Origin: Escherichia phage JLBYU24
DNA: 64,000 nucleotides
Sequence record: OK272476.1
Strand: one strand, 5' to 3'
Shown: in pieces, positions 3,118 through 23,326 of the stretch
Layout of the letters: every line of letters begins with the position of its first letter
Position numbering within the stretch: position 1 is the stretch's first letter
Made by a program: the position numbers and the translations under genes
The notes under the pieces: generated by a model
Told to the model about the DNA's origin: nothing
The model's input: only the letters and a program-made list of their open reading frames with translations
The model's database searches: none

Positions 3118-3254
3118 ATATCAAGAACCGTCATTGAAATGCAAAATAAAATTATTGAAATAAATCCATCTGGAGTGCTAAAGAAACCAATCCAGCATGC
3201 TCTAGTGAATAGATAAAATGCAAGAAAAAGTATCACATATCCAAGAAATATCAT
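3114..3254 (-). CDS. Small hydrophobic protein (46 aa), below ORF-track cutoff
   Basis: Manual translation MIFLGYVILFLAFYLF...; stop overlaps gene 47 start (ATGA). Confidence 0.35.
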   Translation of the reverse strand: MIFLGYVILFLAFYLFTRACWIGFFSTPDGFISIILFCISMTVLDI

Positions 3255-3280
3255 TATATCAAACTCCGTATAAAGCTAAA

Positions 3281-3292
3281 GGGCCGAAGCCC
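3281..3292 (-). terminator. UUCG-tetraloop hairpin at a-gt stop
   Basis: gggccgaagccc; minus-strand RNA GGGC-UUCG-GCCC followed by U-rich tract. Confidence 0.45.
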
Positions 3293-3293
3293 T

Positions 3294-4496
3294 TTATTTT
3301 GTAATAATGTCAAACTGTTCTTTAAAGCAGAAGCTTGAATCTTGATGCTGATACAAAAATTCATATGCTTTTTCTCGCTCACGGTCATAAAGAGCTCGGT
3401 CAGATGACAGTTCTTTAATATGTTCAAATGTTGATTCCATGTCATTTTCATCAAACCAAATGATACCGCTATCATGCGAGGTCAAAGGATTATTATCAAC
3501 ACGGAATTTTAAATTTTCGCCAGTAGATTTCCAAAATACCGGAATTGTTCCACATGCACCAAGCTCGAGATGAGTATATTCTAAAGAACGTTGTAGATAT
3601 TTTTTATCCAACTTACTCAACTGATAACCAAAACCGGATTTACTCATGCGTTCAAGCATTTCGCTATTTACATAACGGTCAAGAATTTGCGTTGGCAAAT
3701 TAGGAGCAATTTTAATTTGGTCTACTTGATGAAGACGATAATACTCGTATGGAATTCCTTTTTCTTTAATAGGAATAAACGCTGGAGAACGTTCCAGACC
3801 TTCCATAATAGTACTTAGTCCTGCAGGTTTAAGATGTTTTTCATGAAAATCAAACATCTGATAAAAACCTTTCCATGTAGTAGTACGACCAATCCAACGG
3901 TTGATATTCATGTTAATTTCAGAAACATCTTTCCAGTAGGTTGATCGAACCTTCGCAATATCCATCGGAGGCTGAAAGTTATATACTGTCGGCGCTTCTT
4001 CAATATCATCAAACAGAGAAACTGTTTCAGGATACCACTCTTTCATCAGAACTTTATTAAAATCACCATTATCAGAATGGCTAAAAATAACATCAGCTCG
4101 ACGAACAGTTTCTTCTAATCCCAAATTTCGACGCAAAGAAAGAGAAGAATGGTCATGTTGATAAACTACAATACGAACAGAAGGTTTAATGTTATCAATA
4201 ATTTTTTTATAGTTATTAATCGTGTCTTCTTCAACCGAAGTAGCAGGAACCGAATTGATAATTAGAATATCACAATCATTTACCAGCTTAAGTGTTTTAT
4301 CATATTCTTTTGCCAATAAAACCGGAATTGAAAATGATTTATAATCATGCGCGCAATTACGAGTAAATGATTTATCTTTAGCATAAACCAAAGTTACTTC
4401 ATGACCATTTTTAATAAACCAATCACGTTGCTCGAGTGAGAATTTTGTTACACCACAACCTTCAAGACCTCGAGCCATAAAAATACATACTTTCAT
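3294..4496 (-). CDS. a-gt: DNA alpha-glucosyltransferase
   Basis: 400 aa, recalled near-identity to T4 alpha-gt, T4 position between 47 and 55. Confidence 0.9.
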   Translation of the reverse strand: MKVCIFMARGLEGCGVTKFSLEQRDWFIKNGHEVTLVYAKDKSFTRNCAHDYKSFSIPVLLAKEYDKTLKLVNDCDILIINSVPATSVEEDTINNYKKIIDNIKPSVRIVVYQHDHSSLSLRRNLGLEETVRRADVIFSHSDNGDFNKVLMKEWYPETVSLFDDIEEAPTVYNFQPPMDIAKVRSTYWKDVSEINMNINRWIGRTTTWKGFYQMFDFHEKHLKPAGLSTIMEGLERSPAFIPIKEKGIPYEYYRLHQVDQIKIAPNLPTQILDRYVNSEMLERMSKSGFGYQLSKLDKKYLQRSLEYTHLELGACGTIPVFWKSTGENLKFRVDNNPLTSHDSGIIWFDENDMESTFEHIKELSSDRALYDREREKAYEFLYQHQDSSFCFKEQFDIITK

Positions 4497-19094: not shown

Positions 19095-20063
19095 TTATTT
19101 CAGAAGAGTAACCTCAGCAATTTCTTCCCAACCATTTTTGTCGGTCATAATAAAGTCAGCAAGATAAAGAGCAGTACGCAGTGAAACATTGCGTAAACGA
19201 TTAACATTGACTTTCATCCATGATAATGCTTTATAAGTTTCTTCATCAGAAAGACCACGCTTTTGCATCATGTCGGTTGAAAGAATAACATCTTCAACCC
19301 TGACCATAATTTCTTCATTAGTGTGAACACCCAAATCTAAATAAACCGAGCGGGAAACTAATGCTTGCAAATGTGGAGCAAGTTTAGTACCACGGTCTAA
19401 TTCGCGGTCAATGTCAACGTTTGTGATAAAAACAATCGTTCCTTTAAATTCAAACTCACGCTCAATGCCTTTTTCTTCTAAGTAAGAAGATGCAGTGCTC
19501 CAGCAGACTTTACGGGTCTCTCCAGTGTCCAGAGCAGCTTTCAAAAGATTAAGAATGTCCATATCAGAGAAAACATCCACATCATCAATCAAAAGGACAG
19601 AATTCTCTTCACGATTATTCCAGAGCTGTTCATAAAGACCGATACCAGAGATTTTACCGTTAATGCTTTTATATTCAATGTATCCAATATCATTTGCTTT
19701 ATTTAAAGCTTTATCTAAAGAATACGTTTTACCAATGCCTGCCGCACCAGAGATAATTAATGAACGAATGTTTCCGTTAATAATACCATTCGTCATCATT
19801 CCCATAACATTAAATCTTTTATTAATGCGGGTTTTCATATCTTCATATGATTCTTTAACTTCTTCAACTTTTACACCATCATATGAAATGTCTGATTTGT
19901 AAACCCAAACACCGCGACGCTTACCGTCAATTTCAACAAAAACTTTACCATCTCCTTGTGCATCTACCGGAGCATTATCTGGGAACCATTCGCCTAAGAG
20001 CTCAAAAGTTCCAGAGATTTCTTTACCGAAGTAGATACCCTTATTGATAGTTACAGTTTTCAT
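19095..20063 (-). CDS. P-loop ATPase (AAA-like)
   Basis: 322 aa, Walker A SGAAGIGKT, Walker B VLLIDDVD, ~100-aa N-terminal domain. Confidence 0.75.
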   Translation of the reverse strand: MKTVTINKGIYFGKEISGTFELLGEWFPDNAPVDAQGDGKVFVEIDGKRRGVWVYKSDISYDGVKVEEVKESYEDMKTRINKRFNVMGMMTNGIINGNIRSLIISGAAGIGKTYSLDKALNKANDIGYIEYKSINGKISGIGLYEQLWNNREENSVLLIDDVDVFSDMDILNLLKAALDTGETRKVCWSTASSYLEEKGIEREFEFKGTIVFITNVDIDRELDRGTKLAPHLQALVSRSVYLDLGVHTNEEIMVRVEDVILSTDMMQKRGLSDEETYKALSWMKVNVNRLRNVSLRTALYLADFIMTDKNGWEEIAEVTLLK

Positions 20064-20120
20064 TTTATTCTCCTTTGATTTGATAGGACTACTATAACAT
20101 AGTCCTATCAGTTTGTATAC

Positions 20121-20321
20121 TTATTTTGACATTTCTTCGATGGCACGACGATACCCGTCACGAACTTCACGAAGAGCTTCAAGGCCACACATAGGCTCGA
20201 TACCAGTAATGTGAACTTGATTAATCTGATACTCTACATCTTCTAACTGAGCGAAAACATAACGACGTTCAGCTGCACACCCAGATTTAGCTTTACCGAA
20301 ACGTTTATTCAAAGTAGTCAT
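20121..20321 (-). CDS. Hypothetical small protein
   Basis: ORF track, directly downstream of an early promoter. Confidence 0.55.
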   Translation of the reverse strand: MTTLNKRFGKAKSGCAAERRYVFAQLEDVEYQINQVHITGIEPMCGLEALREVRDGYRRAIEEMSK

Positions 20322-20359
20322 TTTGTATCTCCAATTTACTCATTTGTTTTGATAGTTGT

Positions 20360-20389
20360 ATAGTACCATAAAGCTTTATGCTTGTAAAC
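20360..20389 (-). promoter_or_regulatory. T4-type early promoter
   Basis: GTTTAC (20384-20389), 18-nt spacer, TACTAT (20360-20365). Confidence 0.55.
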
Positions 20390-20413
20390 AGTTTTGTGAA
20401 AAATTTTTGAAAT

Positions 20414-20437
20414 AAAAAAGGGAGCCCGAAGGCTCCC
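20414..20437 (-). terminator. Rho-independent-type terminator
   Basis: Minus RNA GGGAGCC-UUCG-GGCUCCC followed by UUUUUUAUU, immediately after the stop of ORF 20440..21453. Confidence 0.6.
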
Positions 20438-20439
20438 TA

Positions 20440-21453
20440 TCATTTATAATAACTTCGGTGGTTTTCAAGATAGACCTTCTCAAGGAAGTCATCCCAGAAA
20501 CTCATGTCTACTGTTTTAGGCATACCGTTCTTAGAAGCTTCAGTAGATGCTGCTTCTACTTGATCGACCACATCTTCCAAAAACTCTTGAACTGTTTTAA
20601 ATGGATGTTTACCCAACTTCACGTCGAGAATAAATGGAGCATCTTGAAGTGGATAGACTAAGTCACCAGTTTTGTAAATTTCCAATAGTTGGAGTCCACC
20701 ACGACAAGCATGACTTAGTGCTTTCCAATCAATGCCTTCATTGGCTTCGGCCTTACGAGCACGTTCACCGTATTCAGCATCTAATTTGTTCAGTGACTGC
20801 TTAAGCTCAATAAGAGAAAGCGTTGTCTGATATTTACGACCCAACACGGTGTAGAACGTTTGTGGGCCTGTTTTCTCATGATTATGGAACACCCATTCAC
20901 AGAATTCGTTTTCTGGAAGACGATGCTTAATATCTTCAACTTTAGTGCGACGCTGCTTAATAGAACCATCTTCTTGGTAATCAATCCACTGCTCAGGGAT
21001 TTGATTAACTACTTTCAATACATCACGTAATGCAGCCAAACGAGAACCTTTAACACCGTATTTAGAAGCTTGCTTGCGGACATATCCTAAATATGATTTC
21101 ATGTTAGTCGTATAAAAACGAGAACGGTTGTCTTGAATAAACTTCCACACATCAGGCAAATCAGATTTAACTACTAGTTCAGGTGGAGTGTGGAGCATAT
21201 CCAATGCTACAGTTTCACCATCTGCTGCTAATTTAAAGAAATATTTAAGACTGTATAGTTCATGGTCAATATCATCTTTAGTGTTTTTAGATGATGTGTT
21301 GTTAGTGTTTTTGCTCATATGCTCTTTAACGTTTCCGATAAGAATATCACGAGCAGGAGGAACAAAGATTTCTTTAAAATCTACATCAGATTCTGGGGTA
21401 GAAGTTCCATAAAGATGACTACCAAAATAGCTTTTCATTACTGTTTTCATCAT
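20440..21453 (-). CDS. Predicted Pol-beta-superfamily nucleotidyltransferase
   Basis: 337 aa; N-terminal G-S-x9-D-x-D motif (YFGSHLYGTSTPESDVDF); start overlaps upstream membrane-protein stop (ATGA). Confidence 0.7.
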   Translation of the reverse strand: MMKTVMKSYFGSHLYGTSTPESDVDFKEIFVPPARDILIGNVKEHMSKNTNNTSSKNTKDDIDHELYSLKYFFKLAADGETVALDMLHTPPELVVKSDLPDVWKFIQDNRSRFYTTNMKSYLGYVRKQASKYGVKGSRLAALRDVLKVVNQIPEQWIDYQEDGSIKQRRTKVEDIKHRLPENEFCEWVFHNHEKTGPQTFYTVLGRKYQTTLSLIELKQSLNKLDAEYGERARKAEANEGIDWKALSHACRGGLQLLEIYKTGDLVYPLQDAPFILDVKLGKHPFKTVQEFLEDVVDQVEAASTEASKNGMPKTVDMSFWDDFLEKVYLENHRSYYK

Positions 21454-21923
21454 TCAGCCTTATATTCAATAACAGGACATACTTTAGCTTTACGAGCTTT
21501 TAAAAATTCAACGATAATCGATTTCTTGGGTTGAATAGGCTCAAGTCCATTTTTGATTCGTTCTTCGTTTTGTATAATGAGTTCAATTTCTTTATTGAGC
21601 TTTCGGTCGTTATATTTGTCTAACAACCAGGAAGGACCAATTACCGCCGCGACTGCAATAAGAACCATTATTGATATTGTTAAAATACCTATACCAATTG
21701 AAGCCGGAACTAATGTCCATAGACTACTAAAGACAAAGAATTTAATTAAAATTTCTTGGCCAATGATTGCGGCACCTGCTAAAGTTGCAAATCCAACAAT
21801 TGAAACAGCTAATACCGGGAGAAACGTTTTCCAAAAATAAGCACATAACGTTTTTGGACGATTCCATGTGCTGTTAAATGCCGAGTAAATTTTAAAGTGC
21901 CAAGAGTTTTCATTAATAATCAT
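21450..21923 (-). CDS. Membrane protein (about three predicted TM helices)
   Basis: 157 aa, hydrophobic spans FLPVLAVSIVGFATLAGAAIIG and LVPASIGIGILTISIMVLIAVAAVIG. Confidence 0.65.
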   Translation of the reverse strand: MIINENSWHFKIYSAFNSTWNRPKTLCAYFWKTFLPVLAVSIVGFATLAGAAIIGQEILIKFFVFSSLWTLVPASIGIGILTISIMVLIAVAAVIGPSWLLDKYNDRKLNKEIELIIQNEERIKNGLEPIQPKKSIIVEFLKARKAKVCPVIEYKAE

Positions 21924-21925
21924 AA

Positions 21926-22447
21926 TTATCCTTTCATTGAAGGCGTAACGGTTGTTAAATACTTAATCATCGCTTCAGCTTCTGATTTTGATAATGAAAT
22001 TTCTTCATTGTTTTGACGAATAGAAATAAAATCCGGATGACGGTCACCACCAGCTTTTAAAACACATATATAAGTATCAGTTTCATCTTCAATATTTGAA
22101 ATGATTGAAGCAGTTCCACATGAATGCGGTTTTTGATAAATCAATACAGCTTTTCTTCCGCCATTTGACTGTTCATAAACTTTTAATACATCAAACAAAT
22201 CACTTCTTTTATCAATAGCTAAAATGTTATTTTCATCTTCAATGTTAAATCCTTCGGATACTTCATAAAGTGTTACCCATAAATCACCGATGTCAATAAC
22301 AGCATTTACTTTTCCACGGCTTTCAAGAGTATGACAAATTTTCTTGATTTCGTCATAACTCATTTTAATAATATCATCTCCTTGACTAAGAAAGATGTCA
22401 TTTTTAAATTCAACACGAATTAAACCGCTTTCACTTGAAATAAACAT
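21926..22447 (-). CDS. Hypothetical protein, tandem paralog 1
   Basis: 173 aa; shares FNIE-D/S-E, and C-terminal K-YL--V-P-M with ORF 22454..22999. Confidence 0.65.
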   Translation of the reverse strand: MFISSESGLIRVEFKNDIFLSQGDDIIKMSYDEIKKICHTLESRGKVNAVIDIGDLWVTLYEVSEGFNIEDENNILAIDKRSDLFDVLKVYEQSNGGRKAVLIYQKPHSCGTASIISNIEDETDTYICVLKAGGDRHPDFISIRQNNEEISLSKSEAEAMIKYLTTVTPSMKG

Positions 22448-22453
22448 ATTTCC

Positions 22454-22999
22454 TCACTTTGAAATCATAGTTGGAATAACAGAATCAAGATAAGTCTTTA
22501 GTGCAATAGCTTCGTCTTTGGTAAATGTGACAATATGCGATCGAAAATCATCAATTTGACGAATAGTTAAGACATCTCCATCTTCATAACATTTTGATAC
22601 GTTTAAAACAGTTTCATCATTCTGATTGCAAGCGTTAGTAATAATAGCATTGCAATTTTTAAACCATTTTAAACTATGTTTTCTTTCATTAGAATAATAA
22701 AAATATTTAATCTTAGTTATAAAATTATCCCAATTATTAATTGATAAGCATATTGACTCGCTTTCAATATTAAATCCTGGGCATAAAGAATAGAAATGAA
22801 TTTTATGCTCATCATTAATGCTTACAATTTTATCAGTATAAGAATTTTCAATTTGGGTTAAACGAACAATTTCGTTAGGCGTAAAATATAGCATATCGTC
22901 TTCTTGTGTCAAACGATACATATTATTTACTTTTTCTATAGCCAATTCACCAAAAAGTGAACTAACTTCTAATACTAATCGTTTCGCCTCACTCATCAT
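22454..22999 (-). CDS. Hypothetical protein, tandem paralog 2
   Basis: 181 aa; see paralog 1. Confidence 0.65.
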   Translation of the reverse strand: MMSEAKRLVLEVSSLFGELAIEKVNNMYRLTQEDDMLYFTPNEIVRLTQIENSYTDKIVSINDEHKIHFYSLCPGFNIESESICLSINNWDNFITKIKYFYYSNERKHSLKWFKNCNAIITNACNQNDETVLNVSKCYEDGDVLTIRQIDDFRSHIVTFTKDEAIALKTYLDSVIPTMISK

Positions 23000-23131
23000 T
23001 GTATACTCCTCTGAATCATATCAATAATGTTGTTCACCAGATTATAAGTAAACATTGGGTAATTATATTGAATCATCACATACACAACAAACAAAATTTT
23101 CATTCTCTTCTCCTTGACAGTTGACAAGATT

Positions 23132-23161
23132 ACTATACCATAACCTTGCCAACTTGTAAAC
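23132..23161 (-). promoter_or_regulatory. Putative T4-type early promoter
   Basis: GTTTAC (23156-23161), 18-nt spacer, TATAGT (23132-23137). Confidence 0.45.
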
Positions 23162-23326
23162 CATTAAATGACGTTTTCAATAAAATTCTGAAGCTTTGTG
23201 TGAGCATCAACCATGATTTTCATTTCTTCCTTTGCGAAAGCCGTACCTCTTTCCCGAGCAGAATACTCATAGTCAGAAACTGCATTAGCATATTCTTCAA
23301 TTAGCTTCATTAAAAACATCTGCTTT

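Follow-up and report, generated by a model that had tools for sequence, protein, structure and literature searches.

The last gene of an early transcription unit in Escherichia phage JLBYU24 (sequence record OK272476.1), a T4-like Tequatrovirus, is by its sequence the ortholog of T4 nrdC.11, and the nucleotidyltransferase it encodes, a member of the RlaP family within the Pol-beta superfamily, probably restores nucleotides at the broken 3' ends of tRNAs ahead of their ligation. The unit is read on the minus strand and follows the T-even order mobD.2, mobD.1, a second gene of the y05I family, a membrane protein gene and nrdC.11; all positions given here are those of the 64,000-nucleotide (nt) stretch that was analysed, referred to below as the window. 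The enzyme is not a new one, as it is the product of a well-conserved T-even gene for which the annotation as a COG3541 nucleotidyltransferase dates from 2006 (PMC1524935) and which has already been placed in the RlaP family, where T4 NrdC.11 falls in a separate cluster, number 5, of the sequence similarity network (SSN) (PMC12776372). A preliminary description of this DNA held that the protein could be assigned to no characterised family from sequence alone, a view that gives way to its T4 orthology, to a family match above the gathering threshold and to the naming of T4 NrdC.11 as an RlaP in the study just cited.

Gene identities were taken from a comparison with the T4 RefSeq record and from direct blastn. 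The 337-amino-acid (aa) gene occupies the same slot as T4 NrdC.11 (NP_049709; T4p095), between nrdC.10 and the mobD.1 block, with shared synteny and about 95% DNA identity to the T4 gene, and between its product and the T2 protein the identity is 98%. It matches Pfam family PF10127, RlaP (“RNA repair pathway DNA polymerase beta family”), with 43.9 bits against a gathering cutoff of 23 (E=3.1e-11) over residues 7-135, which cover positions 23-142 of the 249 in the family’s hidden Markov model. The name RlaP reportedly goes back to Burroughs and Aravind in 2016. A search of 1.84 billion representative proteins returned 3506 relatives, and 106 of these (34-55% identity) were aligned with the query; PF10127 is matched by all 107 aligned sequences (best E=2.2e-19), and a precomputed match to it stands on all 120 close relatives listed. 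The catalytic motif GSHLYGTSTPESDVD has the spacing G-S-x10-D-x-D. It had been recognised earlier as a Pol-beta nucleotidyltransferase signature, and its presence and retention among homologs are borne out, although the spacing of nine residues then given is one too few. Across the 107 sequences G11 and S12 are invariant, while D23, D25, D61, D63 and D85 are each kept in at least 90%.

The likeness to canonical RlaPs extends to the active site. An hhalign comparison with canonical full-length RlaPs from bacterial loci (probability 94.3%, E=1e-7) maps GS to GS, D23 and D25 to the canonical D39 and D41, and D63 to D72, the invariant third Asp of the canonical proteins. The AlphaFold2 model built from the 107-sequence alignment, with a predicted local distance difference test (pLDDT) score of 94.4, consists of an N-terminal nucleotidyltransferase and a helical C-terminal domain, and the structures that it resembles most are HalB, 3c18 and KNTase/ANT; a model made from 20 close relatives, with a pLDDT of 53, was unusable. 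The preliminary description had asked whether the topology is that of cGAS/DncV or of MNT/KNTase and whether there is a third Asp; the first model comes out as MNT/KNTase-like, and the third Asp (D63) is present. With the bacterial RlaPs of Rtc operons, such as PfRlaP and PaRlaP (SSN cluster 1a), the NrdC.11 clade has in common PF10127, the GS loop, the DxD, the third Asp and, going by the model, the overall build of a nucleotidyltransferase followed by a helical C-terminal domain.

The case for an RNA substrate comes from the biochemistry of two Pseudomonas enzymes, PfRlaP and PaRlaP, described by Carruthers, Fatma and Huang in a preprint of December 2025 (PMC12776372). Both add one or two nucleoside monophosphates or deoxynucleoside monophosphates to an RNA 3'-OH, add nothing to DNA or protein, and do not accept E. 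coli proteins as substrates. In tRNA mimics the RlaPs act more readily on the 3' end at the broken anticodon than on the acceptor end, and RlaP raises the aminoacylation of a repaired tRNA that is short of one nucleotide; it was proposed as an antidote to “smart” ribotoxins such as RloC (PMC12776372); the same prediction has been made for phage RlaPs (PMC7824862). Going by these bacterial enzymes, which belong to a different subcluster, RNA is most likely the substrate of the nrdC.11 product and the repair of tRNA most likely its role.

The cellular relatives of NrdC.11 support such a role in RNA repair. A scan in which each prokaryotic species was represented by a single genome gave 156 of them, at 34-54% identity over the full length, and neighbour clustering with a Pfam scan of representatives found canonical RlaP beside them in 14 loci, and a Pnkp ligase domain, RtcB and TROVE/Ro60 in four loci each. 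In the 14 loci (among L177-L256; e.g., L194 5001-6730), a canonical RlaP of about 255 aa lies immediately downstream of the long, NrdC.11-like RlaP, an arrangement that suggests two non-redundant paralogs working together. A phage contig (L079) has an AAA_33 kinase-like gene that overlaps the start of the nucleotidyltransferase gene, and a metallophosphatase gene upstream.

The pathway that the enzyme is predicted to serve is the Pnkp-Rnl1 tRNA repair of T4, itself the classic system of tRNA cleavage and repair, which answers the anticodon nucleases PrrC and RloC; the nrdC.11 product would restore the nucleotide removed by RloC-type nucleases before ligation takes place (PMC12776372, PMC7824862). 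Unlike that pathway, the unit holds neither a Pnkp nor a ligase gene, and the link between the two is one that we infer. In the mechanism proposed, the GS loop and the carboxylate triad D23/D25/D63 would bind two divalent metals and the nucleoside triphosphate (NTP), and after nucleotide addition the phage Pnkp and RNA ligase would reseal an anticodon loop of full length.

Several points weigh against this assignment of function. The hhalign alignment to canonical RlaPs is limited to the N-terminal ~121 columns, and the C-terminal ~200 residues of the NrdC.11 clade, with a beta-rich insert at 155-209, cannot be aligned to the canonical proteins; the T4 clade of RlaP, about 80 residues longer than the bacterial enzymes and set apart from them in SSN cluster 5 (PMC12776372), has a C-terminal module of its own. 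The RlaPs that have been characterised fall in a different subcluster, 1a (PMC12776372), and the tandem with canonical RlaP in 14 cellular loci suggests that the two proteins are not functionally equivalent. Because of this tandem and of the unalignable C-terminal half, the NrdC.11 clade may not act exactly like PfRlaP. Neither an RNA ligase nor a Pnkp gene stands next to nrdC.11 in the window or in most phage loci, and the literature consulted yielded no experiment, whether biochemical or genetic, on T4 NrdC.11. Finally, the segment from nrdC.11 to mobD.3 is dispensable in laboratory T4 (PMC9825161); since its loss leaves the phage viable, the role of nrdC.11, if any, would be a conditional one.

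When given total E. coli RNA, PfRlaP and PaRlaP also label tRNAs and rRNAs of full length, and they discriminate little among NTPs (PMC12776372), as would be expected of an offensive or regulatory enzyme that, like the nucleotidyltransferase toxins of the MenT type, tails the intact 3' ends of host tRNA, rRNA or mRNA so as to inactivate or mark these RNAs in host takeover. The position of nrdC.11 in an early transcription unit, and of the phage gene away from any adjacent ligase, would suit such an activity as well. It is unlikely all the same, given the preference of RlaPs for the broken-anticodon end of tRNA mimics (PMC12776372), the repair genes (RtcB, Pnkp ligase, Ro60/TROVE) that occur alongside the cellular relatives, and the finding of no toxin or antitoxin model above threshold, that of MntA reaching just E=0.061.

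The structural comparison brings in another candidate activity, in which a transferase of the MNT/ANT type would nucleotidylate a protein or a small molecule; AMPylation of a toxin or a defence protein of the host would be one instance. KNTase/ANT(4') and MNT-HEPN complexes are among the solved structures closest in fold, and the bundle of helices at the C-terminus is similar to HEPN/KNTase_C domains. At the level of sequence models, PF01909 NTP_transf_2 (E=0.096, 13.5 bits, cutoff 21) and the NCBIfam model for MntA (13.2 bits, cutoff 60) both remain below threshold, the E. coli proteins were not RlaP substrates (PMC12776372), and the gene neighbourhoods favour RNA repair, which together make an MNT/ANT-type transferase decidedly unlikely.

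Two further explanations would tie the enzyme to the membrane protein encoded just upstream, and both depend on how firmly the two genes belong together. The preliminary description had coupled the nucleotidyltransferase to a small membrane protein, and in so far as the genes are co-transcribed and overlap by ATGA this is so; a functional coupling is not supported, in view of T4, where mobD takes the place of the membrane gene and the second paralog, of several Straboviridae in which the two genes are unlinked, and of many phages that have the membrane gene with no such nucleotidyltransferase nearby. In 78 phage loci with the nucleotidyltransferase, direct adjacency to a homolog of the membrane protein is confined to enzymes of 76% identity or more. 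In other Tevenvirinae and in Acinetobacter phages the membrane gene is 0.4-1.7 kb upstream with other genes in between, several Straboviridae carry the two genes tens of kb apart on the same contig, and in most of the distant phage loci among the 78 no membrane-protein homolog was detected within 4 kb of the enzyme. The family of the membrane protein, phrog_944, also occurs in Pakpunavirus, ICP1-like, GAP32-like and other phages that have no such nucleotidyltransferase nearby. The neighbour that it keeps most often is a y05I-like gene lying upstream, which is present at 29 of 80 loci, without exception in Tevenvirinae. An obligate pair of nucleotidyltransferase and membrane protein was rejected for these reasons: mobD in its place in T4, genes tens of kb apart in other Straboviridae, and a membrane gene that is widespread without the enzyme. 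The genes for the y05I paralogs and for the phrog_944 membrane protein are thus accessory genes transcribed together with nrdC.11, and none is a required partner of its enzyme.

This bears directly on a Hailong-like or anti-Hailong function, in which HalB-like oligodeoxyadenylates would gate the adjacent membrane protein, or would replenish an inhibitory DNA signal that keeps the HalA channel of the host closed. HalB (PDB 9dbh, 9dbj), a protein of 217 aa that makes oligodeoxyadenylate, is among the best structural matches; the likeness is at the level of the fold, at 16% identity, with no detectable sequence similarity to the 337-aa protein. PDB sequence searches with the protein and with the 107-sequence profile gave nothing meaningful, the profile finding no chain, HalB included, at E<=10 in a set of structures that seemingly left PfRlaP outside. 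Family membership and cellular neighbourhoods favour RNA repair instead, RlaPs are inactive on DNA and add only one or two nucleotides (PMC12776372), and the phage membrane protein, which belongs to a different and freely dissociable family, is no obligate partner. A HalA-type match for the 157-aa protein was likewise absent from PADLOC, though its 2023 library may predate Hailong. We consider a Hailong-like function very unlikely.

A CD-NTase-like synthase of signalling nucleotides with the small membrane protein as its effector, for superinfection exclusion as the preliminary description had suggested or for abortive infection, is hardly credible and the CBASS-like story should be dropped: the Pol-beta superfamily and its GS...DxD motif are indeed shared with the cGAS/DncV-like CD-NTases of CBASS, and the ATGA overlap of the membrane gene with the nucleotidyltransferase start couples the two translationally in the window, but the protein belongs to RlaP, PADLOC defence models match none of six proteins at E<=0.1, no cGAS, DncV or CD-NTase structure is among the structural matches listed, no recognisable nucleotide-sensing domain was found in the membrane protein with Pfam, and there is neither a cognate effector architecture nor a conserved linkage to an effector, the membrane gene being replaced by mobD in T4, tens of kb away in other Straboviridae and present in Pakpunavirus, ICP1-like and GAP32-like phages that lack a nearby nucleotidyltransferase. 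Membership in CBASS, Hailong or MNT was rejected on the sequence-model, PDB-profile and structure searches taken together.

The membrane protein deserves attention of its own. Hydropathy places its hydrophobic residues at 33-100, and alignment of phrog_944 shows invariant W8, C27, Y29, K147 and C149 in the termini, where conserved motifs read SWH..LCxYFW at the N-terminus and LKAKKxKxCPxIE at the C-terminus. The three transmembrane helices first ascribed to it correspond to a real hydrophobic stretch, but their number is uncertain: some homologs are only 125-135 aa long and the charged N- and C-termini are conserved, which agrees better with two helices. The middle segment of the gene is a strongly diverged cassette, set in flanks whose DNA keeps 96-98% identity to that of other Tequatroviruses. 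Both this protein and the nucleotidyltransferase are the products of real genes, as tblastn finds the 157-aa protein in 1259 phage records and the 337-aa protein in 1517; the former is less than 60% identical in 1096 of its 1259 records, and the latter at least 95% identical in 482. Among T-even phages there are at least two allele classes of the membrane protein, of 157 aa and 153 aa, which are about 54% identical.

In different phage groups, a phrog_944 gene lies on the same strand and zero to two small genes upstream of different RNA-repair enzymes. The gene downstream is RlaP in T-even phages (Tevenvirinae) and Acinetobacter phages, Rnl1 with an AAA_33 kinase in Pakpunavirus (where metallophosphatase and HD genes lie upstream), in Biquartavirus-like contigs a PF09414 ligase that carries a PHA02142 OB domain, in two other T4-like contigs (L139 and L171) Rnl2, and in a single contig from a metagenome (L135) a HAD phosphatase of the Pnkp type; the loci involved are these three and L124, L132, L133, L142, L153, L116, L138, L150, L168, L169 and L079. 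Since RlaP is encoded tens of kb away in some such phages, the membrane gene would track “an RNA-repair gene” and not RlaP specifically. About 29 of the 40 distinct downstream contexts have no RNA-repair gene, and a strict, universal link was rejected on that account; other downstream neighbours are HNH endonucleases and dNMP-kinase-like, RuvC-like and Pol X-like genes. On a conservative count, five independent enzyme types in some 30 independent contexts compare with a rough expectation of one or two, for which our own rough estimate is P ~0.03, a figure that is only suggestive. That the phrog_944 protein is an accessory factor of RNA repair in phages, not recognised as such before, is a tentative idea, and we think it rather doubtful; neither PMC12776372 nor PMC7824862 (section 3.4.9) mentions a membrane component. 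If the idea were true, the invariant termini with their Cys and His residues and the diverged transmembrane core would mark a membrane-anchored factor that works with tRNA repair or regulates it, and one membrane-protein family found recurrently beside different RNA-repair enzymes is in any case a concrete lead.

Genes of nicotinamide adenine dinucleotide (NAD) salvage are also found in some of these surroundings. In distant phages (L053, L056, L059, L061, L068, L069, L070 and L082), the RlaP gene is often a few kb from genes for NMNAT-Nudix, NAMPT and phosphoribosyl pyrophosphate (PRPP) synthase, and in PAK_P4 (L005 5774-8399) these same genes follow the cluster of membrane protein, Rnl1 and kinase.

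The layout of the unit is given in Table 1. The segment from 20000 to 23200 of the window has matches in 700 phage records, the best at 95-98% identity.

Table 1. Features of the nrdC.11 transcription unit and of the small unit that follows it, by position in the window
Feature	Position	Strand	Evidence
T4-type early promoter driving the unit	23160..23132	-	GTTTACA, 17-nt spacer, TATAGT, upstream TGG; 10/12 matches, TG ahead of second hexamer
mobD.2 ortholog, 35 aa, at the head of the unit	22996..23103	-	phrog_3515 E=1e-21; T4 mobD.2 at same position
mobD.1 ortholog, 181 aa, T4_y05I family	22454..22999	-	Pfam T4_y05I_N 6.8e-41, T4_y05I_C 9.8e-21; phrog_1502; T4 mobD.1 DNA 94%
Second T4_y05I paralog, 173 aa, not in T4	21926..22447	-	Pfam T4_y05I_N 2.3e-33, T4_y05I_C 1.5e-22
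Membrane protein, 157 aa, not in T4	21450..21923	-	phrog_944 1.6e-50; hydropathy
Diverged middle segment of membrane-protein gene	21540..21830	-	blastn vs KAW1E185
nrdC.11 ortholog, 337 aa, RlaP-family (PF10127) Pol-beta nucleotidyltransferase	20440..21453	-	Pfam RlaP 3.1e-11; phrog_388 6.7e-138; T4 synteny
Intrinsic terminator ending the unit	20438..20409	-	8 pairs, 6 G-C, loop of 4, T-run
Separate small unit, not in T4: early-type promoter (20388..20360) and 66-aa open reading frame (20121..20321; phrog_6200)	20121..20388	-	

The four co-directional genes of the preliminary description are all present on the minus strand where it had placed them, tightly packed as it had said, and the early promoter and strong terminator that it set at the two ends were both located. 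Read from the sequence, successive genes from the 181-aa gene onward are separated first by 6 nt and then by 2 nt, and the last two overlap by 4 nt (ATGA); a Shine-Dalgarno-like sequence precedes each of these junctions. What had been described as a four-gene operon is in fact a unit of five, as the 35-aa mobD.2 ortholog comes first; it sits between the promoter and the 181-aa gene, has an AAGGAG Shine-Dalgarno sequence ahead of it, and overlaps with its stop the start of the 181-aa gene by ATGA. The terminator starts one base past the nrdC.11 stop codon with a G+C-rich 8-bp stem (20438..20419), followed by TTTTTATTT, and the homologous site in NC_054922 carries a terminator annotation. The range of 20121-22999 first reported does contain unit sequence, but 20121..20439 lies outside the unit, where the 66-aa open reading frame follows the terminator with its own early-type promoter. 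This reading frame lies between nrdC.11 and nrdC.10 and is present in just two of the fetched loci. On the minus strand at 22885-22912, within the mobD.1 coding region, there is a near-consensus sigma-70 match (TTGACA, 16-nt spacer, TATATT with TG; 11/12) that may be an early promoter internal to the unit or, in DNA so rich in AT, a match by chance.

The unit is flanked by nrdC.10, a 322-aa AAA-type gene, downstream, and by rI.-1 and rI upstream. Compared with T4, it differs in its middle. T4 has the HNH homing endonuclease gene mobD directly upstream of nrdC.11 (L002 14430-15209), whereas the window has the 173-aa and 157-aa genes there, and blastn found no T4 DNA match across 21455..22428; T4 is also without the 66-aa reading frame that follows nrdC.11 in the window. 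In a related contig (L016) a mobD homolog (3240-3995) is inserted between the membrane gene and nrdC.11 with the membrane gene retained, and since the insertion there involved no deletion of that gene, the T4 arrangement is the derived one. The mobD insertion site is listed in a review as nrdC.11/mobD.1 (PMC2988022). In further lineages as well, what comes after the membrane gene is an HNH or homing-endonuclease-like gene (e.g., L173 4457-4921), and because of this recurrence the junction looks like a recurrent homing site.

The 181-aa and 173-aa proteins had been taken for tandem paralogs, and the comparison upholds this: they are 27% identical (BLASTP E=1e-12) and, from their alignments to family models, both belong to the T4_y05I (MobD.1) family as true paralogs. 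With T4_y05I_N and T4_y05I_C the former scores 139.4 and 74.3 bits and the latter 115.2 and 80.1 bits, against cutoffs of 24.9 and 27. A PDB search gave neither a solved structure nor a function for the MobD.1 paralogs.

The product of nrdC.10 (window 19095-20063) is a P-loop/AAA-like protein of 322 aa with weak matches to AAA_14, AAA_22 and STAND. Its gene is found downstream of nrdC.11 in 38 of the 78 phage loci at 61-100% identity, better conserved than the nucleotidyltransferase, and in none of the cellular loci; as a partner of nrdC.11 this AAA ATPase was set aside and treated as lineage synteny, on the strength of that distribution. A PDB search for NrdC.10 was without result. At 20080-20119 a 12-bp inverted repeat (GATAGGACTACTATAACATAGTCCTATC) overlaps a promoter-like site upstream of nrdC.10. 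Annotations of nrdC.10 vary among records between “helicase loader” and “clamp loader”. Errors have travelled with gene names: many public records call nrdC.11 orthologs “thioredoxin”, and in RefSeq orthologs of mobD.1 or of mobD.4 bear the label [quoted passage not shown].

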